Source of the DNA: Candidatus Omnitrophota bacterium
Lineage (GTDB): Bacteria; Omnitrophota; Omnitrophia; Omnitrophales; Aquincolibacteriaceae
DNA: 36,036 nt
Direction: 5' to 3'
Assembly: GCA_043803685.1 (NCBI GenBank)
Contig: JAZDJU010000014.1
Span: 1-36,036, forward strand
Shown here: in pieces, positions 6,484 to 27,282 of the stretch
Numbering within the stretch: position 1 is the stretch's first letter
How the letters are laid out: each line of letters begins with the position of its first letter
Notes under the pieces: generated by a model
Database searches by the model: none
The model's input: only the letters and a program-made list of their open reading frames with translations
What the model was told of the DNA's origin: nothing
Made by a program: the position numbers and the translations under genes

Positions 6484-7074
6484 ATGATCAAGAAGATATC
6501 GTTACTGGCGATCGGATTCCTTATCTGTTTCCCACTGGCCGCTTTCGCGGCTGTCCTTGTTGAGGGGCGTACGGGCACATTGATCATTACGAACCCTGAC
6601 GGCACTACTATTACGGCTGGGCCCAATGACCCTCTCCCTGTGATCCAGGACGGTGCTTCCGTTAAAGTAATGGATGGTGTCGCACGCATCTCTACGACGG
6701 GTACTACGATCCTCCAGGTTTTAGCCGGGACTTTAACATTTCAGCTTGCGCCAGGGACGATCCTGAACGTCATGTTTGAGCCGACGGGTGCGGTGATCGC
6801 CGAAGCTATGACGGGGCAAATGACGACAGTCATTGCCGACGGCAGGACCGCAACGATGGATGCGGGGGATCAGATCCGTTTGACGCCGGACGGTGGATTT
6901 GAGGCGTTCAAGGGTGAAATAATCCTGACCGATAGCACAGGGAAGACCGAAATATTGGGTGCCGGCATCAAGATCGAGGGTTACACACCTCCGGAGACTC
7001 CTGACGTACTAACCGTCGATACGCAAGTACAGAGTGAAGAAACTTCCCGAGATATCAGTCCGGTTCAATCCTGA
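6484..7074 (+). CDS. secreted beta-rich (FecR-like) protein with conserved C-terminal EGYTPPE...SEETSRDISPVQS tail
   Basis: GGGAG RBS; signal peptide ending AFA-A; Thr/Gly-rich repeated beta motif (EGRTGTLIITNPDGTT / EAMTGQMTTVIADGRT / EAFKGEIILTDSTGKT); tail shared with 26500-27282. Confidence 0.8.
   Translation: MIKKISLLAIGFLICFPLAAFAAVLVEGRTGTLIITNPDGTTITAGPNDPLPVIQDGASVKVMDGVARISTTGTTILQVLAGTLTFQLAPGTILNVMFEPTGAVIAEAMTGQMTTVIADGRTATMDAGDQIRLTPDGGFEAFKGEIILTDSTGKTEILGAGIKIEGYTPPETPDVLTVDTQVQSEETSRDISPVQS
6976..7074 (+). repeat. dispersed protein-level repeat, copy 1 (32-aa C-terminal tail)
   Basis: EGYTPPETPDVLTVDTQVQSEETSRDISPVQS*, 26/32 aa identical to 27184-27282. Confidence 0.95.
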
Positions 7075-7105
7075 TCATGAGCGGAATTTTGAGAGGAAAC
7101 CTATT

Positions 7106-8314
7106 TTGAATTTTTCAAGGCTTTTGCTTGCGGCATGGATGTTCAGCTTTGTGCTTGTTCCGGCGGTGTCCGCTAAGACCTATCGCGAAGAAGGTATCCG
7201 AATCGGGGGGAACGAGTTTAAGGAAGTCAAAGGCATCCGCATGGGCAAAGCCCGCGTCAAGGGCGGTTTTTCCACGCAGGGCCAGTTCGACTCCAACGTG
7301 TATTTGACCCCCAAAAAAGGAACTAAAGATTACATTTTTACTTTAAGTCCCAAGGTCCTCATGGACCTGCCTTTCGGGATCGATGAACGCCATCTTTTTC
7401 AGGCGTTGTACATGGGAGAGGGCGGTCTTTTCTGCAGTCAGACAAGCCAGAACTACATGAATGAACGTGGCGCGGTCAATTTGAACCTGCGGCTTCCCTT
7501 TGGTTTTTTTAATACGAATGACGATTTCAAAGACACGACCGATCGTTCCGGGACGGAATTTACGACTCGGGTTCATCGGTTGGAGAATACCGCATCCGCT
7601 ACGATGGGGGTTCAGCACAACAAGTTGAGCTATGAGGTCAACTACACCAATTTTTTTAAATGGTACTATAAACAGCAATACAAGGACCTTGGATATTTTG
7701 AGAACGATTTCAAGGGGACCGTTTTTTATCAGTTGTTCCCCAAAACCCAGGCGCTGATTGATTATACGTTCGGCTTGCTGGACTACTACAGGAACAAATC
7801 CCGTAACGGTTACCTCAATCAGGTAACGACCGGTCTTAAAGGAGATCTTACCGGAAAAACCATCGGGATCGCCAAGGCCGGTTTTCAGGCCAGGGATTAT
7901 GATGTTGGTAAAGGGTATGTGGGGTTTGTGGGTGAATTAGGCGCTATTACAAAATTCTCGGAGCGTACAGAAGTGACACTCAAATATCACACGACCCCGG
8001 TCGAGTCGGTGGCGAATAGCGGCAATTACTACACGAGCAACATTCTGAGCGCCCAGTTGGATCAAAAGCTGATGGGGCATTTTAGTGCCATGTTGAGGAC
8101 TTCGGTCGCGCTTGATCACTATCCCCAGGTCGATCAAGGCACGGACACCAAGCGCAGGGATTGGTTGTTCGATGAAAGTATTTGGCTGTATTACAACATC
8201 AAGAATTGGGGCAAGATCGGAATCGGATATGATTTCAGGCGGCGCGCTTCCAATATCGGTTCCCAGTCCTATACTGATAATCTGGTTTCGACGCGTTTTG
8301 ACTTCGTTTTCTAA
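7106..8314 (+). CDS. outer-membrane beta-barrel protein of polysaccharide loci (BBP2 / VpsM / EpsX-like)
   Basis: TTG start after GAGAGG RBS; signal peptide; FDSNVY motif; alternating aromatic beta-strands; ends in Phe (RFDFVF, BAM signature); lies between OPX and Wzc genes. Confidence 0.8.
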   Translation: MNFSRLLLAAWMFSFVLVPAVSAKTYREEGIRIGGNEFKEVKGIRMGKARVKGGFSTQGQFDSNVYLTPKKGTKDYIFTLSPKVLMDLPFGIDERHLFQALYMGEGGLFCSQTSQNYMNERGAVNLNLRLPFGFFNTNDDFKDTTDRSGTEFTTRVHRLENTASATMGVQHNKLSYEVNYTNFFKWYYKQQYKDLGYFENDFKGTVFYQLFPKTQALIDYTFGLLDYYRNKSRNGYLNQVTTGLKGDLTGKTIGIAKAGFQARDYDVGKGYVGFVGELGAITKFSERTEVTLKYHTTPVESVANSGNYYTSNILSAQLDQKLMGHFSAMLRTSVALDHYPQVDQGTDTKRRDWLFDESIWLYYNIKNWGKIGIGYDFRRRASNIGSQSYTDNLVSTRFDFVF

Positions 8315-8423: not shown

Positions 8424-10118
8424 ATGCCGGAGTTTGAGTCGAAAGTTGAAGGTTCAGACGGGGGAGAGATCGATCTCCGGGATGCCTTCCACAAGTTGAT
8501 TAAGCATCGCCGGACGATTCTGACCGTGACTGGCATCTGCCTCGTGGTCTCTTTGATTTATTCGTTCACGGCCCTGCCCATCTATAGTGCCACGACCCGA
8601 ATTCTTGTCGAAGCCAAACCTCCGAAGATTGTCAAGGTGGAGGATGTTATTCTTCCGGACTACACCGATCGCACTAATTTCTTTAATTCCCAGGTTGAGA
8701 TCCTGAAAAGCCGTTCTGTGGCTGAGGTCGTTCTTGGGAATCTCGGGAAATACGAGCCGTGGGACCGGCGCGGCAAGCCCGCCGAAAAACTGAAGCCGAT
8801 CACTTCCGGTGAGATCGTTGATTTCATAACTAAGCACGTCAAGATCTCTCCTGTGCGTATGACGATGGTCATCAAGATTGAGGTGGAGGATCCGGACGCG
8901 GCCCTTGCCGCCAAGATCGCCAATGACTGGGCCCGGGCCTACGTGCTTTTCTCCTCACAGGACCAACAGCTCCAGCGCCGTAGTGAGCTTGAGGCGGATC
9001 TCGCTCAACAGTTGAAATACATGAAGGAAAAGCATCCCGTTATTGTGGGGCTGAAAAATGAGATCGCCGCGATCAATGAGAAGATCGCCGCTGAACAGAA
9101 AGCCGGGAAGCTTGGTCAGACCGCGTCCGGGTATGACATCACCAACGTCAAAGTCCTGGAGCGCGCCCACGCGCCGCTGAAACCCGCCCGGCCCCGAAAA
9201 CTTCTCAATCTTATGTTGGCGCTTCTACTTGGCCTGCTTGCGGGCGCCGGTCTGGCGTTTCTGTTTGAATCGTTGGATCAAACCTTGAGATCGGCGGCGG
9301 ATCTTGAAATGTTCCTCAAATTGTTCTGTCTCGCGCAGGTGCCCACGCATGTGATCGAAAAAGATCATCCCGAGGCGAGTCCTCAATTTGTGACGGAAGT
9401 GTCCCGCCACTCTCCCATGGCCGAGGCCTTCCGGAGCCTCCGGACCGGGATCATTTACAGCAACCCCGACCTTCCCAAGAGAACATTTCTTGTGACGAGC
9501 GCCACACCTTCTGAAGGGAAAACGACCGTGGCCGTCAACCTTGCCATTGTTTTTGCACAAGCCGAGGAGAAAGTGCTTTTGGTGGATACCGACCTTCGCC
9601 GGCCTTGTCTCCACTCTCTTTTTCAGGTGGACCGTTCCAATGGCGTGATCGACATGTTGGCGTTCGACCGCTCCGACGTTCATTCCCTGGTTCATAAGAC
9701 GAGCATTAAGGGTCTCGATCTTCTGACTTGCGGGGAAGTGCCGCCCAATCCGTCAGAACTCTTGGGCTCTCAGAAAATGGAAGAGATCATCAAGAAGTTC
9801 TCCTCGATTTATGATCGTATCATTTTTGACACGCCTCCGATCCTGGCGGCGACTGATGCCATCGTGCTTTCGACCAAGGTAGATTCTGTGATCCTGGTCA
9901 TCAAGGCCGGAGCGACGCACCGTTATGCTGCGCAGCGATGTGTCCACGCTCTCAGGTCCGTGAACGCGCGAGTGGGAGGCGCGGTGCTTAATATGATCGA
10001 TCCTGATCAGCGAGGGCCGTATGATTATTATTACCACTACGGCGAGAACGCGAACCCGAAGAATAAGAAGAAGTTCATCAAAGTAAATCTCCAGAAGCAA
10101 ACAGGCCCAGGGGCCTGA
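8424..10118 (+). CDS. wzc: polysaccharide co-polymerase / tyrosine autokinase (Wzc-like)
   Basis: EIDLRD Wzz-type N-terminus, two TM helices, Pro-rich PLKPARPRK, AEAFRSLRT, Walker A SATPSEGKTT, A' LVDTDLRRP, Walker B IIFDTPP and Tyr cluster PYDYYYHY. Confidence 0.93.
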   Translation: MPEFESKVEGSDGGEIDLRDAFHKLIKHRRTILTVTGICLVVSLIYSFTALPIYSATTRILVEAKPPKIVKVEDVILPDYTDRTNFFNSQVEILKSRSVAEVVLGNLGKYEPWDRRGKPAEKLKPITSGEIVDFITKHVKISPVRMTMVIKIEVEDPDAALAAKIANDWARAYVLFSSQDQQLQRRSELEADLAQQLKYMKEKHPVIVGLKNEIAAINEKIAAEQKAGKLGQTASGYDITNVKVLERAHAPLKPARPRKLLNLMLALLLGLLAGAGLAFLFESLDQTLRSAADLEMFLKLFCLAQVPTHVIEKDHPEASPQFVTEVSRHSPMAEAFRSLRTGIIYSNPDLPKRTFLVTSATPSEGKTTVAVNLAIVFAQAEEKVLLVDTDLRRPCLHSLFQVDRSNGVIDMLAFDRSDVHSLVHKTSIKGLDLLTCGEVPPNPSELLGSQKMEEIIKKFSSIYDRIIFDTPPILAATDAIVLSTKVDSVILVIKAGATHRYAAQRCVHALRSVNARVGGAVLNMIDPDQRGPYDYYYHYGENANPKNKKKFIKVNLQKQTGPGA

Positions 10119-10126
10119 GCTTCTCC

Positions 10127-11578
10127 ATGCTTTTGACGCTTGCCGAGGGGCTCCTGTTCTTGGCGCTGATCGCGGCGCCTCTCCTCTACGGTTCTGTCCA
10201 CTTCCTGTCTTTGATCTTTCTTGCTTTCCTCGGTGTGCTGACGTTCAACATGGTGGGGATGGTCCGGCCTGAGTCTTTCGCTCGAGCCTTACGTACGCCT
10301 TGGACTTGGCTAGGGATCGCGATCGGGGCTGTTATCCTGACGCAGTTCATTCCGATGCCCGTGGAATGGATTCGCAAGATATCGCCTGAGACTTATCGTT
10401 TTTACGAACTCTATTTCCCGGGAGGTGTGAAGCCAGGAAGCTATTTCACATTGTCCGTTTGTCCCGGTGAAACCGTTCGAGGGCTGATCCAGTTCCTGAC
10501 TTACGGTCTTTTTTTTCTAAGCGTCTGGATGTGTCTTGCTTCCGTTCCTGCCGCGCCGGCGGCAGAGGTTCATCCGGTCAGTTGGAAAAAATCAGAATTT
10601 TTAAAACTGGGTTGCCTGACAGGGATCCTAGCGCTTCTTTTTCACAGCATCTACGACTTCAATCTGCACATTTCGGCTAATGGAATCTACTTCGTCACGC
10701 TTTTGGCGCTTGGGGCCGGCGCCTCGGACAGGGTTTACGATCACGCGTTCTTCCGGCGAGTGGTCGATTTCTTCATCACCTTTGGCTTCCTTGTCGCGCT
10801 TTTCGCGATCCTTCAAAAGTTCAGCCACAACGGGCGCATCTTCTGGGTTGGTATGAAGGCCTCTAAACCCGTTGGACCTTATTTTAATTATGACCATTAC
10901 GCTGGATTTATGGAGATGTGCAGTGCCGTGGCGGTTGGTAAGGTCGTTGCGAGTTTTTTTCACACCTCTTTTGCTCATTGCAAAGGGCTTGCCCAAAAGA
11001 TCTTCTGGTTTTCGACCCGTGAGGCTCACCAGGCACTGCGTTGTCTTTTAATGTCCGCAGTTATGATCGCGACGATCTTCATGTCGACTTCGCGCGGAGG
11101 GATCATGAGTTTTGCTCTTAGCCAGATCTTTTTTTTCTCGGTCTTTCTCTGGACGGCCGGTCGACAGCGAAAAGGCAAGAGATGGGCGGGGGTCGTGACG
11201 GCAGGGATGCTTTTTGTGGGCGTGATGGTCCTTTGGCTTGGGCCCGAGACTCTCTTAAAGAAAATCCATATGACTTCGGTCGAAAAGATCATCAAGATGG
11301 AAAGCTCAGATTCTATCCGCATCCATTTTTATAAAGGAACGCTTCTCGTGATCCGCGACTTCCCTGTTATTGGTACGGGGCTTGGAACTTTTGGTACTAA
11401 TTTTACTCGCTATCGTTCCTTTAAATATTTTGGAGGGCCAACCAATTATTTACGACGCACTCATAACGACTATCTTGAGCTTGTCTCCGAAACCGGGATC
11501 GCGGGAGTTCTTTTCCTTCTTGGTTTTCTGATTCTTTATTTGCGCGCCGTCATCCTTGTTGTGAGGAAGCTCGAATGA
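10127..11578 (+). CDS. O-antigen ligase / O-oligosaccharyltransferase family membrane protein (Wzy_C), apparently internally permuted
   Basis: GPYFNYDHYAGF, STSRGG, DFPVIGTGLGTF and THNDYLELVSETG motifs; multiple TM helices. Confidence 0.85.
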   Translation: MLLTLAEGLLFLALIAAPLLYGSVHFLSLIFLAFLGVLTFNMVGMVRPESFARALRTPWTWLGIAIGAVILTQFIPMPVEWIRKISPETYRFYELYFPGGVKPGSYFTLSVCPGETVRGLIQFLTYGLFFLSVWMCLASVPAAPAAEVHPVSWKKSEFLKLGCLTGILALLFHSIYDFNLHISANGIYFVTLLALGAGASDRVYDHAFFRRVVDFFITFGFLVALFAILQKFSHNGRIFWVGMKASKPVGPYFNYDHYAGFMEMCSAVAVGKVVASFFHTSFAHCKGLAQKIFWFSTREAHQALRCLLMSAVMIATIFMSTSRGGIMSFALSQIFFFSVFLWTAGRQRKGKRWAGVVTAGMLFVGVMVLWLGPETLLKKIHMTSVEKIIKMESSDSIRIHFYKGTLLVIRDFPVIGTGLGTFGTNFTRYRSFKYFGGPTNYLRRTHNDYLELVSETGIAGVLFLLGFLILYLRAVILVVRKLE

Positions 11579-12273
11579 GGACTTTTGTGATCGGTGATAT
11601 CCATGGTGCCTATAAGGCCCTCCTTCAGTGCTTTGCGCGGTCCGGGTTTGAACGCGAGAGGGATCATCTTATCGTTTTGGGCGATGTGTGCGACGTTTAT
11701 CCGGAAGTTCGCGAGTGTATGGACGAACTCATCGCGCTCAAACATTGCGATTTCATCATTGGGAATCATGATTTGTGGGCTCTCGATTGGGCGACCCGGG
11801 GATTAAAGCCTACAATGTGGCTCGAGCAGGGGGGCGAGGCGACGATACGTTCCTATGGAGGAGGCCCGGTGCTGGCTGCGCACGTGGATTTTCTCAACAA
11901 GGCGCACCCCTGGCTTGAGATCGATGGCCGTGCTTTTGTCCACGCGGGGTTCGATCCGGACCGTCCTTTGAAGGGGCAAAGTCTCAAAACCCTGGCTTGG
12001 GACCGCTGTCTTTTGCGCAGGGCTCTGGAGGACGGGGTATCCGGGCGCAGTCATCAGATCGGATGCTACAAGGAGATCTTTCTCGGCCACACTCCGATCG
12101 GGATCCTGCATGACTCGGTGCCTCAACACGTGTGCAATGTCTGGGCCATGGATACCGGAGCCGGTTGGTCGGGGCCTCTTACGATCATGGATGTGGACAC
12201 GAAAGAATTCTGGCAGTCCGATCCGACACCCTCTCTTTACGGTGTTAAAGGTCGGCAGAAAGGCGAGGGTTAA
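11575..12273 (+). CDS. calcineurin-like (PPP family) metallophosphoesterase / protein phosphatase
   Basis: GDIHG, GDVCD, GNHD, FVHAG, GHTP and DTGAG motifs; ATGA overlap with the upstream gene. Confidence 0.9.
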   Translation: MRTFVIGDIHGAYKALLQCFARSGFERERDHLIVLGDVCDVYPEVRECMDELIALKHCDFIIGNHDLWALDWATRGLKPTMWLEQGGEATIRSYGGGPVLAAHVDFLNKAHPWLEIDGRAFVHAGFDPDRPLKGQSLKTLAWDRCLLRRALEDGVSGRSHQIGCYKEIFLGHTPIGILHDSVPQHVCNVWAMDTGAGWSGPLTIMDVDTKEFWQSDPTPSLYGVKGRQKGEG

Positions 12274-12274
12274 C

Positions 12275-12679
12275 ATGAGGACCGTTCTTTTCGCCTTGAG
12301 TTTTTGCTTCATAGTGCTTCTTGTTTGCGCCGGGAGCGCGGAGCTTCTCTTTCTGCAGGGGAAGTCCGGACGCAACATCGAACTTCTCAAGACAGCTGAG
12401 AAACTCAATCCGCTTGCTTCTGATCATGCTTATGAAGTCTACCGGTTGACAGGAGATCTCGGGGCGCTTCGCCGTGCGATGAGCCTTGAATCCACGCGCC
12501 CTGCTTATCACATGTATTATGGCCTGTCGCTTCTCAAATCAAAGCCCCGCACCCGCTCTAGTGATAAGGAAGCCGTTACTGAGATCTGCAAAGCCGCCAG
12601 TCTTAAGCCTTACAGCCGTCAATACAAGGCCACTTGCGAAGAATACAAAAAAGTGATCCCTGTTCCGGCGGGTTTATAG
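12275..12679 (+). CDS. small membrane-anchored TPR-like helical protein
   Basis: ATG at 12275 after GAGGG; N-terminal hydrophobic segment; TPR-like repeats (AEKLNPLASD, AMSLESTRPAYHMYYG, AASLKPYS). Confidence 0.65.
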   Translation: MRTVLFALSFCFIVLLVCAGSAELLFLQGKSGRNIELLKTAEKLNPLASDHAYEVYRLTGDLGALRRAMSLESTRPAYHMYYGLSLLKSKPRTRSSDKEAVTEICKAASLKPYSRQYKATCEEYKKVIPVPAGL

Positions 12680-16460: not shown

Positions 16461-17780
16461 GTGAGTGTTGTCTTGAAAAAGATGCCCAGGATTCTTGATG
16501 TCGGAAGCCAGGATGGCGCGGTTCGATCTCGCTCTTGCTACTGGAAAAGCCTGCTATTAGTCGTTTTGGCATTCCTTGTCGGATTCGCGAACGCTAAAGG
16601 CTATTTGCAGCTATTAGATTTACAGTTTTTATCGAGGCTGCTTACAGCCATGCTGGTCTTCATTCTTTTTCTTTCTAGCCTTACCTTGCTAAAATCAAAA
16701 GGAACGCCTTTAAAATACATTGTTCCTTTGTTTGTTCTTGTTCTTTCGAAATATGCTTGGTTGTACTTTGTAAATCCCGGACTCTTTTCTGTTTCCGGTC
16801 CGGAAGTTAATACGAATTTTGCGCAAGGCTATTATCTCTTCCACACTTCTTATCGTGGGGAGGTTTTTTATCTCCTCATAGGCTTCTTTTTATGTTGCGT
16901 TGTCGCGCGAGGGGCAAACTCTTTTCGCGAACTTAGATGGATTGTTGGCGCGTTGGTTCTAGGTAGCGGCATAGCCCCATTAATAGGTTTTTTCTTTTTC
17001 CACCAGATGGTTGGGTTTCGCGAGACGATGGTTGACGGCATTTTGTTTCCTGGAGGCTTTTGGAATTCTTCCGTTATTTCTTTTATTTCAGTGTTTTGGC
17101 TAGCGGTTGCAGTGATGCCGTACGCGTCAAAGCTGGGGTCTTGGATTTTAAAAATCTTTTTGTTTTTTATTACGATGGGAGCACTGGTTGGGCTATCGAG
17201 AGCTGCTCTTGTGTCAATGAGCATATCGTCAATGGTTTATCTCGTTATGGCAAGGGAAGGAAGGGCGAGGATTAAATTAACAATCTTTTTTCTCCTTATT
17301 ATTTTGATTTGCCTTCTCTTTTTCAGCAATGTTGTCGGTGATTTTCAGTCGAGATTTATTGAAAAGGCGACTCTTGCTGATGAATTAAGACTTCAAATCT
17401 GGATGGGGTATCTTTCAAATTTTTCGCAATACTGGATGTCAGGTATGGGGGAAGATGGGTATTTGGCCTTTTCAGCGACGCGGCAAGGTGCTCACTCTAT
17501 TATTTTAAGCTATTTAGTTCGTTTTGGTTTTTTGGGGGTAGTTTTTTTTCTTTGGTTGCTCTACGGCGTTTGGGTGTCAATTGTAAAGATACAAAAAGCA
17601 TTTCCTTCGAAAGCTATAGCAGCGATTTGTGCGTGGTTGACGGCCTATTTGTGTTTGGTCACCTATAACGAAACTGGCTTTGCTGAGATTGGTTTGTATA
17701 TGCCCTTGGGATTATTATTGGCTTGGGGAGAAATTGCATCCCGGTATGGACTGTGTTCCGAAACCTGCGGGGGGAGATAA
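16461..17780 (+). CDS. polysaccharide polymerase Wzy / O-antigen ligase-like membrane protein
   Basis: Very hydrophobic, about 10-12 TM helices, AT-rich; GLSRAA, RLQIW and GAHSIILSYLVRFGFLG Wzy_C-like motifs; lies among the GT genes. Confidence 0.75.
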   Translation: MSVVLKKMPRILDVGSQDGAVRSRSCYWKSLLLVVLAFLVGFANAKGYLQLLDLQFLSRLLTAMLVFILFLSSLTLLKSKGTPLKYIVPLFVLVLSKYAWLYFVNPGLFSVSGPEVNTNFAQGYYLFHTSYRGEVFYLLIGFFLCCVVARGANSFRELRWIVGALVLGSGIAPLIGFFFFHQMVGFRETMVDGILFPGGFWNSSVISFISVFWLAVAVMPYASKLGSWILKIFLFFITMGALVGLSRAALVSMSISSMVYLVMAREGRARIKLTIFFLLIILICLLFFSNVVGDFQSRFIEKATLADELRLQIWMGYLSNFSQYWMSGMGEDGYLAFSATRQGAHSIILSYLVRFGFLGVVFFLWLLYGVWVSIVKIQKAFPSKAIAAICAWLTAYLCLVTYNETGFAEIGLYMPLGLLLAWGEIASRYGLCSETCGGR

Positions 17781-24303: not shown

Positions 24304-24397
24304 TCTTCGAGGTACGTCTTTCTGAAAAGGATGTTTTATCCTGAGAAGGTGTGCGCTAGAATAATCAATTCTAATGCGGTATAAGAGGGAGCGTTTC

Positions 24398-25255
24398 ATG
24401 CGGATCTTTTTTTTGTTTTGTCTGCTCGGTTTGATCGGGTGCGGTGAGTCGAAGCCTTTACCTGGTGATGTCGTGGCTAAGGTGAACGGTTATTCCATCA
24501 CTTCGAAGGAACTTGAGCGGGAGATCGCCGCCTCATGGCCGGTGCTCCAGAATTTTCAAGGTCTTTCAGCGGAAGCATTAAAGGCCAAGGTTTTAGACTC
24601 GATGATTGTGAATCAGCTTCTTATTGAAGAGGCCCAAAGGCTTAATGTGGACAAAGATCCGGGTTTTATGCGCAGGATCGAGCAAGACTGGCGTGAGGAG
24701 CTTTTGAAGGCGGTTCTTGTAAAAAAGAATGCGGAATTTTCGCGGAAGGTCCCGGCGACGGAGGCTAGCCTGCGTGTGCTTTATGCGCGCGAAACAGAAG
24801 AGCTGGAATTGGATCTAGTGACGCTTTCCGACAAGGCTGCGGCAGAGGAGCTTTCGTCCGCTCCGGCTGATGATTTTGAAAGAACGATTGAGATACTTGG
24901 CGGAAAAGTGGTCTTGCGTACTGGGCCGGGTTGGTGGGCTTCGGGGGATCTTCCTGAGGCGCTTGAGGAAAAACTCTGGGATCTTCCTGCCGGAAAGGTG
25001 AGTCCGTTGCTTTGGCCTACGAATGAGGGATGGATTGTGGCTCGTGTGCTTTCCAGGGAAAAAGTCAATCTTCTGCCTTTTGAAGAAGTAAGGGAGGGCC
25101 TGCAGAAGAGGCTCGCCCGAAAGAAGCTTTCGAACATGACAGATCTTTGGATCGATGAACTGCGGTCTCGCGCGAAGATCTTTACCGATTCGCGGGCTGT
25201 TGAAAAGCTCAAGCTGAGTGTTTCTGAGGGGACGGGAGGTCGTGATGGAAAATAA
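24398..25255 (+). CDS. SurA/PrsA-like peptidyl-prolyl isomerase / chaperone lipoprotein (EpsD-like)
   Basis: GAGGGA RBS; lipobox LIG-C; VVAKVNGYSIT, LLIEEAQRLNVDKDP, LPAGKVSP..GWIVARV, PFEEVR and WIDELRSRAKI segments. Confidence 0.82.
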   Translation: MRIFFLFCLLGLIGCGESKPLPGDVVAKVNGYSITSKELEREIAASWPVLQNFQGLSAEALKAKVLDSMIVNQLLIEEAQRLNVDKDPGFMRRIEQDWREELLKAVLVKKNAEFSRKVPATEASLRVLYARETEELELDLVTLSDKAAAEELSSAPADDFERTIEILGGKVVLRTGPGWWASGDLPEALEEKLWDLPAGKVSPLLWPTNEGWIVARVLSREKVNLLPFEEVREGLQKRLARKKLSNMTDLWIDELRSRAKIFTDSRAVEKLKLSVSEGTGGRDGK

Positions 25256-25799
25256 GAACGGAGCCAATGGTCGTAAGACCCTGATCGTGGACCCGGCGTT
25301 CCAAACGCCGTTCGTCGCGAAATTCTTTTTTATGGTGGCGGCGGGCTCCTTGATCCTCGGAGCCATCGTTTATTTTTTCTGCACACAGACGGTTACGACA
25401 GTCTTTAAAGATTCCCGGCTGAAGATCGTGACTACAGCGGATTTCATCTTGCCCGGGCTTTTGATCGGTATCGCTGTGGTCATCGCGGTGGTCGGTATCG
25501 CGACGGCCCTCATGGCTCTTTATGCTTCTCACCGCATTGCGGGGCCGGTTTATCGGATACGGCGCGATCTAAGGAGTTTTAAGGCGGGAAGTATGGAGCA
25601 GGTTTTTCGAGTGCGCGAAAAGGACGAGATTAAAGCCCTGGCGGCCGAACTGGATGAGATGGCGCGTGCCATTCAAAAAAGCATGGCGGATATCAAGGCG
25701 GAAGTATCGGGAATTGATTCGATCGCGGAAGATCTTTCTCCCACGGCCAGGAAGCATTTGGCTGCCCTGAAGAAAATTCTGGACACCTATCGTGCGTAA
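25245..25799 (+). CDS. two-TM HAMP-domain membrane protein with no output domain
   Basis: GGGAGG RBS; RKTLIVDPAFQ N-terminus; two TM helices; SHRIAGPVYRI...RVREKDEIKALA HAMP motif; short coiled coil. Confidence 0.75.
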   Translation: MENKNGANGRKTLIVDPAFQTPFVAKFFFMVAAGSLILGAIVYFFCTQTVTTVFKDSRLKIVTTADFILPGLLIGIAVVIAVVGIATALMALYASHRIAGPVYRIRRDLRSFKAGSMEQVFRVREKDEIKALAAELDEMARAIQKSMADIKAEVSGIDSIAEDLSPTARKHLAALKKILDTYRA

Positions 25800-26463
25800 T
25801 GTTTCTTTGGTTGTTATTCTATCAGCGATCATTTTGAGCGGAGCGGTCGTTTGTGTGCCGACGGCGGTTGCGGGGGATTCGTCGGTATTTCAAGTGGCAT
25901 CGGCCGCTGAATCTCCGAAAGCACGTCTTTCGTCTCATGTGGGGATGAGAAGATCCTCGGCGGCAGACGATCTCATGGGTTGGATCATGATCAAGGGGAA
26001 TACCGTTTCCGTTTATTATCTTCCCGGAGCGAATTTGAAAAAGATAGAGTCCCGTTTGCGGGATCGGAGTCTTCCTCTCGCGCGGCAGTACCGTGACCTT
26101 TTTACGAATAAGGCGTATTCGATCGAAAGCCGGATCAGCGCTCGTTTGCAGTTCCTTCTTATGAGGGTTCAGGACATTCTGGGGATGAAACCCTTGATTC
26201 CTTTTATTGATCTGAAGATCTTCCATACGAGGGACGAGCTTCAAGAGCGGTACCGTCAACTGGCGATGGGTACGGCGGACCACAAGGCGTTTTATGTGCA
26301 CGCGCTAAGTACGATCTTTAGTTCGGAGAAGGACATTATTGATTCGATCATTGCCCATGAAATGGCGCATGCGACGATGGATTATTATTTCATGGCACCG
26401 CCCCCGACCCAGGTGGCGGAATTGCTAGCCCATCATGTTGATGAACATCTCGAAGGAGACTGA
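25792..26463 (+). CDS. secreted HExxH zinc-metallopeptidase-like protein
   Basis: Signal peptide ending AVA; KAFY strand; IIAHEMAHA motif with a downstream Glu (QVAE), gluzincin-like. Confidence 0.7.
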   Translation: MRNVSLVVILSAIILSGAVVCVPTAVAGDSSVFQVASAAESPKARLSSHVGMRRSSAADDLMGWIMIKGNTVSVYYLPGANLKKIESRLRDRSLPLARQYRDLFTNKAYSIESRISARLQFLLMRVQDILGMKPLIPFIDLKIFHTRDELQERYRQLAMGTADHKAFYVHALSTIFSSEKDIIDSIIAHEMAHATMDYYFMAPPPTQVAELLAHHVDEHLEGD

Positions 26464-26499: not shown

Positions 26500-27282
26500 A
26501 TGAAGAAAATGATCTTTTTGGCGGCGGTCGTTCTGGCCGTTGGGATTTTAGGGATGTCCGGTGGTTTGTTCGCTGCGGTGCCGGGAGCGGTGCAGGCGGG
26601 GAGTGTGGCTTCAATTCAGGGAGAGGTTAAAGCCATAACGTCTTCCGACCCTTCGCCCCGTTTCTTAAAGAACGGAGATCCGGTATTCATGGGGGACAAA
26701 ATAGAAACGGACGCGGAGGGCGGGTTGCAGATCCAGCTTCTCGATGGAACGGTATTTACGCTAGGTTCGGCGAGCGCGTTCACGATTGATGAGTTTATTT
26801 ATGATCCGGCTACCGACGACGGCAAAGTGAAGGCCCATATGCTTCAGGGCATGTTCCGGATCGTTACCGGGAGAGTGGCGCACAAGAAACCTGAGAATAT
26901 GGTTGTGAATCTCCCGGCGGGAAGTATGGGGTTTCGCGGAACGGATGTGATCGGGATCATTAACGGTACAAGAACCGAGATCATTCTTGTCGGCCCTGTG
27001 GGGACGGGGCGGATTTACGTGACCAATCTTGTGAATGGGCAGGTCGTGACGGTGGATATCGATCAGGCCGGATATGCGACCATTGTCGATGGTCCGAACG
27101 TCGCGCCGGTGGCGATATTCCAGGTTTCTCCTGAGGAACTCGCGCAGGCCGCTCAGGCGCTTGGTTTGCCGCCTTTGGATGCGGAAGGGTATACGCCGCC
27201 TGAGATACCGGATCCTACGGTTGTCGATGCTACGGTTCAAAGCGAAGAGACTTCCAGGGATATCAGCCCAGTCCAGTCCTAA
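26500..27282 (+). CDS. secreted FecR-domain protein with conserved C-terminal EGYTPPE...SEETSRDISPVQS tail
   Basis: GAGAGG RBS; signal peptide; AGSVASIQGEV, GDPVFMGDKIET, DGTVFTLG, GMFRIVTG and SMGFRGT FecR-like motifs. Confidence 0.85.
   Translation: MKKMIFLAAVVLAVGILGMSGGLFAAVPGAVQAGSVASIQGEVKAITSSDPSPRFLKNGDPVFMGDKIETDAEGGLQIQLLDGTVFTLGSASAFTIDEFIYDPATDDGKVKAHMLQGMFRIVTGRVAHKKPENMVVNLPAGSMGFRGTDVIGIINGTRTEIILVGPVGTGRIYVTNLVNGQVVTVDIDQAGYATIVDGPNVAPVAIFQVSPEELAQAAQALGLPPLDAEGYTPPEIPDPTVVDATVQSEETSRDISPVQS
27184..27282 (+). repeat. dispersed protein-level repeat, copy 2 (32-aa C-terminal tail)
   Basis: EGYTPPEIPDPTVVDATVQSEETSRDISPVQS*, 26/32 aa identical to 6976-7074. Confidence 0.95.

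Follow-up and report, generated by a model that had tools for sequence, protein, structure and literature searches.

A Ser-Pro-ending C-terminal tail shared by two secreted proteins of an Omnitrophota polysaccharide locus, a candidate signal for tying capsule to the cell

Two secreted proteins, here called A and B, bracket a polysaccharide locus of Candidatus Omnitrophota bacterium (GenBank assembly GCA_043803685.1, genome G000 below) and end in nearly the same 32 residues, which raises the question of what reads this shared end. The locus lies in a stretch of 36,036 nucleotides (contig JAZDJU010000014.1, positions 1 to 36,036 of the forward strand), which is called the window throughout this paper, and its features are listed in Table 1. 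In a preliminary description of this DNA, the tail was proposed to be read by an enzyme or translocon of the locus, and this general reading appears to hold. Among the classes weighed here, a C-terminal glycosylation or sorting signal is the best supported, and the tail may mark proteins that tie the capsule to the cell.

Table 1. Features of the window discussed in the text; positions are those of the window.
Feature	Position	Strand	Basis or remark
OPX with four SLBB repeats, ending PESLF, without C-terminal outer-membrane helix	4943..6385	+	Poly_export and SLBB
Protein A, 196 aa	6484..7074	+	Signal peptide, predicted FecR-fold body (residues 22-160), tail; directly upstream of barrel
Tail of A	6976..7074	+	GYTPP motif, acidic spacer, terminal DISP motif, stop
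BBP2 outer-membrane beta-barrel	7034..8314	+	PF10082; weak EpsL TIGR03014; true start probably later than 7034
Wzc co-polymerase/kinase	8424..10118	+	Pfam, NCBIfam
Lig1, Wzy_C ligase-like, candidate reader of the tail	10127..11578	+	PF04932
Metallophosphoesterase	11575..12273	+	Pfam
Small gene after ligase and metallophosphoesterase	12110..12679	+	No family match; stands where relatives have a fused TPR domain or a VpsP gene
Second Wzy_C protein, amid glycosyltransferases	16461..17780	+	Pfam
Secreted HExxH protein directly before B	25792..26463	+	Candidate release protease for the GYTPP form
Protein B, 260 aa	26500..27282	+	Signal peptide, canonical FecR body, N-domain like adhesin retention module, tail
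Tail of B	27184..27282	+	Same signal as tail of A

Both open reading frames end as had been described, and the tail is the sole significant BLASTP segment between A and B (26 of 32 residues identical, E=3e-14). At the DNA level 64 of 99 nucleotides are identical and the stop codons differ (TGA in one, TAA in the other); 9 of the 32 sense codons are the same, 17 differ synonymously and 6 non-synonymously, and the codon was switched at 17 of the 26 residues kept in both tails. The codon counts behind the earlier claim that the DNA is no recent copy and the peptide is under strong selection (6 of 7 and 9 of 15 changed synonymously) were exact. Since silent changes outnumber residue-changing ones to this extent at this nucleotide identity, the tail is under selection as a peptide and is not a recent copy. 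Where the bodies share 40-48%, 14-21 of 30 tail residues are identical, and across 15 aligned tails the Ser is invariant and the Pro nearly invariant. The barrel ORF as listed overlaps the end of A, but this overlap is not the cause of the conservation, because the tail of B has no such overlap and the starts of barrel orthologs suggest a later true start. It is extremely unlikely that the A/B match is a by-product of an old duplication or gene conversion with little function: the two tails are the closest pair within G000 (24/30) and within G130 (17/30), but the pair of G036 shares only 14/30, the motif is kept across phyla, and the retention of residues over largely diverged synonymous sites largely refutes this explanation.

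No model of Pfam or NCBIfam matches either tail, in line with the earlier account of it as a candidate new signal, and neither sequence contains a hydrophobic transmembrane helix or a basic end, as had also been stated. A query of the tail in Atlas gave no usable match. Within the genome searched (2.9 Mb, 91% complete), no third copy was found among 38,336 six-frame ORFs (next best E=0.67), and tail profiles run against 9,743 ORF ends returned the two known copies only (next best E=4.3).

The bodies of A and B had been called dissimilar, which is right for their sequences, where no homology was detected (hhalign probability 1.6%), but not for their folds, which are both of FecR type, that of B by Pfam (PF04773, E=2.5e-8) and that of A by predicted structure. 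Protein A has no Pfam match; its model (pLDDT 90) resembles PupR (Z 11.5, rmsd 2.7 over 106 residues) and BDI_1681 (Z 11.0; Foldseek E 4e-4), so that each protein carries one of the two marks taken here for a FecR fold, PF04773 or the PupR/FecR structure. Residues ~34-107 of B match PDB 5IX9 (E=3.4e-5, the only significant PDB match), which served as template structure for the LapA retention module (bioRxiv 10.1101/198937, available text), and B matches the NCBIfam model NF033682 retention_LapA with E=2.3e-7 and 31 bits, under its cut-off of 50. No similarity to 5IX9 was found for A. Protein B is 59% identical to a paralog in a FecR cluster on contig C42 whose end differs. A tree of 51 FecR bodies places the B proteins with a tail (G000, G036 and G130) and a cut copy of G015 in one clade (support 0.92), nested in a separate FecR family whose other members end differently. 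Judged from this tree, B appears to be a body-tail chimera whose FecR body gained the tail once. The suggestion that A and B are not full-length paralogs is thereby borne out, and the body identity of 28% against 24/30 in the tail agrees with it. The source family of the B body is seen at C42:7800-17400, where four tandem FecR proteins lie between barrel-like and cyclase-like genes (labels assigned by eye).

How far the tail extends beyond this genome was followed through A and its homologs. A-family genes occur in 41 of 401 genomes of the phylum. After two weak matches were left out, 35 of 39 members stand directly before a barrel and one more does so via a small tail-bearing ORF; the others are one at a contig end and two tail-less copies elsewhere. 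A-family copies at L118:1174-1944 and L077:4692-5300 lie away from any barrel and have no Ser-Pro end. An end of SP plus 0-3 residues was found in 93 of the best 150 of 406 library homologs of A, compared with 26 of 1,762 control ORFs (genome ORFs of at least 250 aa). Among the tails are DISP, DSR..SP, EPE..E[AG]SP and GY-ending forms; orthologs differ in their final residue, and the Ser that is conserved stands before Pro. Some tails with GGY-type ends have no Ser near the end, and an A homolog in G045 has no tail. The tail profile gave 14 matches at E<=0.05 over the 401 genomes, 12 of them convincing and 2 weak, and the convincing ones are all training sequences except one G130 copy. A degenerate DNA scan for the EPExxE[AG]S-type tail found four loci, three real cassettes and one chance match, and reached cassettes in records titled 'Nitrospirales' and 'Bacterium BMS3Bbin08'. 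On the sequences compared, the tail is one lineage's form of a wider end, acidic or Gly-rich and closing in Ser-Pro-x(0-4), of which only the terminal Ser-Pro core is general. The 32-residue form first described is thus real but lineage-specific, and the signal is wider than was claimed.

The tail is portable between unrelated secreted bodies. The same tail is borne by B-type FecR bodies in G000, G036 and G130; in G233 it belongs to a 99-aa protein with GYTPP-like and DISP motifs and no folded body, and in G095 near-identical tails close two tandem Ala/Lys-rich proteins of ~600 aa. SP ends are also found on helical and FecR+helical bodies in the phylum of G416, which we take to be Nitrospirota, and several of these bodies carry a G-Y-[TS]-P-P motif like that of A. 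A free C-terminus is not always needed, since 14-27 residues follow the DISP motif in the B protein of G130 and in one protein of G261. Tail proteins with an extension after ISP, ending VGPPF or VGPF, were seen at L299:9834-10682 and L297:6614-7405. This range of bodies bears on the possibility of FecR-type signalling, in which the proteins would sense polymer export and the tail would bind a TPR partner as a peptide, without covalent chemistry. In its favour are the FecR folds of both bodies and the origin of B in the FecR cluster on C42. Against it, the same tail is carried by non-FecR and bodiless proteins, and A, B and the cassette showed neither a sigma factor nor a membrane anchor; signalling is very unlikely.

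The same layout, with looser ends, was found in named records: Desulfotalea psychrophila (ASSI), Sphingomonas taxi and NY01 (SNY.SF/STF), Azospirillum TSH100 (SSPT) and Pseudoalteromonas THAF3 (ISESNQ). In Vibrio sp. THAF64 the order is VpsP, a secreted gene (PTAAG, terminal ASPN) and the ligase. Position and composition suggest that the loose ends are the same signal. No tail-type gene was seen in the barrel loci of Enterobacter, V. campbellii and S. meliloti, and a locus search with A alone found nothing in named genomes and one metagenome locus with a layout identical to that of G028. This taxonomic range is based on GTDB genomes, one profile search of cluster representatives, and plasmid records.

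The genes around A form a polysaccharide export cassette. The C-terminus of the OPX falls directly after its last SLBB repeat, and from this end, together with the available text of PMC12819527, the OPX is probably of class 3. OPX proteins of the class without an outer-membrane helix work with an 18-stranded barrel (PMC9601211, PMC12819527, available parts), and the window accordingly presents such an OPX, a BBP2-type barrel and a PCP. The four SLBB repeats are near-identical, and several relatives have both long and short OPX genes around the tail gene and barrel. The top Foldseek match of the Lig1 model is WaaL (7TPG, E=0.014, prob 1.00). Lig1 is rearranged internally, its HSxxDFNL segment lying at residue ~172 rather than at the usual ~400-440, that is, not after the HNDYL motif; the same rearrangement is seen in G382 and G178 and, judged by match pattern, in about 20 genomes of the phylum. 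Sugar genes and Wzx follow the small gene at 12110 and include the second Wzy_C gene, whose product is likely the polymerase. SurA-like, HAMP-like and HExxH genes, B, and an asparagine-synthase-type amidotransferase occupy the far end, and EpsE/F/G/L-like genes, a PPIase and the amidotransferase were recognized by Pfam or NCBIfam. In G000, G015 and G178 the SurA-like/HAMP-like/HExxH triplet (24374-26463 in the window) immediately precedes a gene that bears the tail or is of B type. A second barrel-OPX-Wzc set of G000 (C93:7293-9186, L097) is cut by a contig end on its upstream side.

Whether the tail belongs with the ligase or with the barrel was approached through gene linkage. PF10082 barrels were found in 82 of 201 genomes in the phylum of G416. 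The 40 top-scoring loci were taken and 39 analysed, and 5 were set aside because contig ends came too early (three of these have a tail gene). The remaining 34 loci comprise 15 with both a tail gene and a Wzc-adjacent ligase, 2 with the ligase only, none with the tail gene only and 17 with neither, G455, G486, G422 and G611 being counted among the last; the Fisher p of 1.5e-7 for this association is overstated, since related genomes do not count independently and these loci had themselves served to refine the ligase profile. The tail-type gene stands directly before the ligase in G455, Pseudoalteromonas THAF3 and Vibrio THAF64, and lies about 11 kb from the barrel in G455 and about 20 kb in Pseudoalteromonas THAF3; these three distant loci point to the ligase as reader. 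Three barrels (G486, G422 and G611) carry a helical body as an N-terminal fusion; there the SP end has been lost and a strong ligase match was not found, a pattern that links the body with the barrel and the tail with the ligase. Helical-repeat/BBP2 fusions are located at L170:4722-6680, L183:13570-15219 and L177:2885-4610, the L177 copy being broken by frameshifts. At least 9 of 12 genomes with the DISP tail share the rearranged (split-match) ligase, and of six further genomes picked by this ligase, all three with the upstream gene in view have secreted [IL]S[PN]-ending proteins.

A blind set of 20 genomes with a strong ligase match had the barrel in view in 16, with an adjacent tail gene in 3 (G233, G095 and a variant in G035) and none in 13, so the ligase is not always next to a tail gene. 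The gene upstream in these 13 loci is PilZ-like in 12 (by eye) and a long membrane protein in one, and the tail profile found no tail gene elsewhere in these genomes. In G438 and G523 barrel and ligase are present and the helical profile found no tail protein. Loci L256-L272 show a second cassette type, composed of a PilZ-like gene, a barrel (often with a long N-terminal extension), OPX, Wzc and ligase, with no adjacent tail gene. The earlier claims that the tail is conserved in orthologs and tied to the barrel/OPX/ligase block were upheld, and the tail shows genomic coupling to barrel, OPX, Wzc and ligase. Whether ligase or barrel is its partner cannot be fully told from linkage, because the genes of the cassette move together and related genomes are not independent samples.

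It is therefore to be considered that the BBP2 barrel or the OPX reads the tail as an unmodified peptide, which would act as channel plug, gate, assembly factor or export signal. The direct precedence of A-family genes to the barrel (35/39), the three barrel fusions and the tracking of barrel subfamily, and also of ligase type, by tail type argue for this reading. Against it, a separate tail gene is missing from 17 of the 34 barrel loci and was never seen in them without a ligase, the tail gene stays with the ligase where it is parted from the barrel, and the SP end is lost in the fusions; the barrel or OPX as reader is unlikely. A complex prediction for the barrel and mature A scored 0.00, which weighs neither for nor against.

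We would give an even chance to the reading that the Wzy_C ligase recognizes the tail and links the polysaccharide of the locus to it, by analogy with the O-oligosaccharyltransferases TfpO and TfpM and their pilins (PMC9829042, available text). The tail would then serve the Wzy_C(+TPR/VpsP-type) ligase of the cassette as a portable signal, both recognized and used as acceptor. Once the protein has been exported by Sec, the ligase would bind the free C-terminal ...S-P-x end and transfer Und-PP-linked polysaccharide to one of the tail's hydroxyl residues, the conserved Ser being the likeliest, and the conjugate would engage the OPX/BBP2 channel. This reading is supported by the conservation of Lig1 among relatives while glycosyltransferases vary, its WaaL-like fold, the presence of a second Wzy_C protein, and the requirement of the Caulobacter ligase CCNA_00164 for capsule, another polymerase being encoded elsewhere (PMC4241560, available text). 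In the available text of PMC9829042, the TfpO/TfpM systems likewise combine a Wzy_C-type enzyme with a short portable C-terminal sequon containing Ser/Thr, the acceptor gene often lies directly upstream of the enzyme gene, and TfpM moves long chains. A linked Wzy_C enzyme is found here too, as the PF04932 protein of the window and by co-occurrence in barrel loci. In contrast to those systems, A and B are not pilins (they have FecR folds and match no pilin model), the candidate enzyme has a TPR/VpsP-type partner and belongs to an OPX/barrel/Wzc export cassette, and the conserved Ser is followed by Pro and 0-4 residues, whereas the Ser/Thr of TfpO/TfpM acceptors is the last residue; A and B both end in Ser, but the last residue is not kept across orthologs. 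The 13 of 16 tail-less ligase-barrel loci, G438 and G523, the tail-less G045 homolog, the Ser-less tails and the DISP motifs that are not terminal count against the ligase reading, as does Sphingomonas LM7 prmB, a gene likened to A by its position upstream of the barrel, whose deletion left EPS output unchanged (PMC10635127, available text).

A further step is more tentative, with clearly less than an even chance of being right: that the folded body plugs the barrel after ligation and so tethers the capsule, and that cleavage by a BTLCP sheds it. As with a toggle bolt, polymer and tail would enter the OPX/BBP2 channel, where the folded body, which in B is a putative homolog of the adhesin retention plug, could not follow. 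The body would stay in the periplasm as a stopper and hold the chain on the cell surface by way of its own pore. The release site would be the motif that follows immediately on the body, TAAG in some lineages and GYTPP in this one; in TAAG lineages a c-di-GMP-controlled LapG/HvyA-type protease would cut the tether and the capsule would be shed, and the GYTPP form of the window would either resist cleavage or be cut by the HExxH protein nearby.

The order of folded N-domain, dialanine motif and Gly-rich unstructured stretch resembles that of LapA, the substrate side of the LapA/LapG pair (10.1101/198937, available text), and the B N-domain matches 5IX9 as noted. DSR-type proteins carry TA[AES]G directly after the body. 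Of 70 DSR linkers, 17 contain the published LapG pattern [TAP]AA[GV], against 3.5% of shuffles; none of 24 DISP or 20 EPE linkers contains it, and this site is absent from A and B. Counted by genome, the strict pattern gives 5/17 against 2/21 and a looser TAAG pattern 13/17 against 2/21, the latter being descriptive, as the pattern was drawn up after the sequences were viewed and the 17 are close kin. Of 50 genomes tested, 17 gave a match to the protease family PF06035, 8 of them above its curated cut-off; these 17 belong to one family and all have DSR-like proteins, and in seven genomes its gene lies on the same contig as A, 14-16 kb apart. It was not found in any DISP genome among the 50, including G000. 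Upstream c-di-GMP-I riboswitches were found in 7 of 8 PF06035 loci scanned. In L226, L228, L229, L231, L232, L233 and L237, LapG-like BTLCP genes follow one c-di-GMP-I riboswitch or a tandem pair or row of them, and most of these genes lie immediately upstream of one for a sugar-phosphate transferase. BTLCP and EAL proteins precede the tail-type gene in Pseudoalteromonas, BTLCP genes occur in both Sphingomonas loci, and these give independent support to the release-site link. In resemblance to LapA/LapG, the strict site is enriched in one tail class, and a PF06035 protease encoded downstream of c-di-GMP-I riboswitches co-occurs with it. Linkers with a TAAG-type motif are usually accompanied by a LapG/HvyA-type protease, and the GYTPP form of the window has neither motif nor protease. 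The differences are that Sec signal peptides replace type 1 secretion, the BBP2 barrel rather than TolC would be the pore, A and B have 196 and 260 aa without RTX repeats against >1000 aa in LapA-type proteins, and neither TAAG in the tails of the window nor PF06035 in G000 was found. The HExxH protein next to B is a weak candidate for a protease acting on the GYTPP form. Its role as a general partner of this form was only partly supported, close homologs occurring in 7 of 50 genomes and none being found in G028, G036 and G074.

The tether model does not account for the bodiless and internal-motif cases, for the GY ends without Ser or for the dispensable prmB of Sphingomonas. The bodiless protein of G233 and the long low-complexity bodies of G095, poor fits for a stopper, would suit surface display for the protein's own sake, in which the body is exported and held outside via the polysaccharide in the manner of PEP-CTERM proteins or T9SS cargo, with no periplasmic stopper, and the locus resembles EpsDEFGL/PEP-CTERM loci. 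Such display is nevertheless quite unlikely: only one or two tail proteins were found per genome, unlike a general display signal, and a LapG-type site with a periplasmic LapG-type protease implies that the linker stays periplasmic.

Secreted proteins of the PEP-CTERM/exosortase (EpsH) system likewise bear their signal at the C-terminus and are encoded in EPS loci with EpsE/F/G/L-like genes, PPIase and amidotransferase, but the tails described here contain no PEP motif, transmembrane helix or basic cluster. The earlier statement that no exosortase is visible is correct for this locus and not for the genome, where an exosortase (E=2e-57) lies beside its own three PEP-CTERM genes at C101:4000-9600 (L099, L100), away from the locus; PF07589 finds these three and neither tail. 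Three further systems were compared by description. Class-3 OPX/18-stranded barrel pathways (EpsX-EpsY, WzaB-WzpB) share the barrel, a short OPX ending xxESFF/LF and Wzc (PMC9601211, PMC12819527, available text). The vpsL-Q-like loci of Vibrio share, in THAF64, a VpsP gene followed by a small secreted gene. The Caulobacter capsule locus CCNA_00162-168 contains Wzc, a 'polymerase/ligase', a metallophosphatase, a short OPX and the BTLCP HvyA, which prevents capsulation and whose target was not found in the 2014 paper (PMC4241560, available text). The available parts of these accounts describe no tail-bearing acceptor. The tail lies outside the defining features of PEP-CTERM signals, TfpO/TfpM acceptors and LapA modules, and would work like parts of the last two. 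No prior description of it was found in the literature searched, whose coverage leaves out most subscription journals, and the Ser-Pro end signal is apparently undescribed so far.

In a 2025 review (PMC12220298, available text), the mechanism by which capsule is retained in Gram-negative Wzx/Wzy systems was stated as not known. The tail offers a concrete candidate for it, with an acceptor class, a candidate enzyme, a candidate residue and, in some lineages, a candidate release protease, and the cassette is present in the culturable Vibrio sp. THAF64, Pseudoalteromonas sp. THAF3, Sphingomonas taxi and Desulfotalea psychrophila, where it is directly testable. For glycoengineering, a ligase that attaches entire capsule chains to a short portable tag would be a new tool. 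If the tether reading is true, it would supply the missing substrate of Caulobacter HvyA and would be a categorically new way to hold a Gram-negative Wzx/Wzy capsule.
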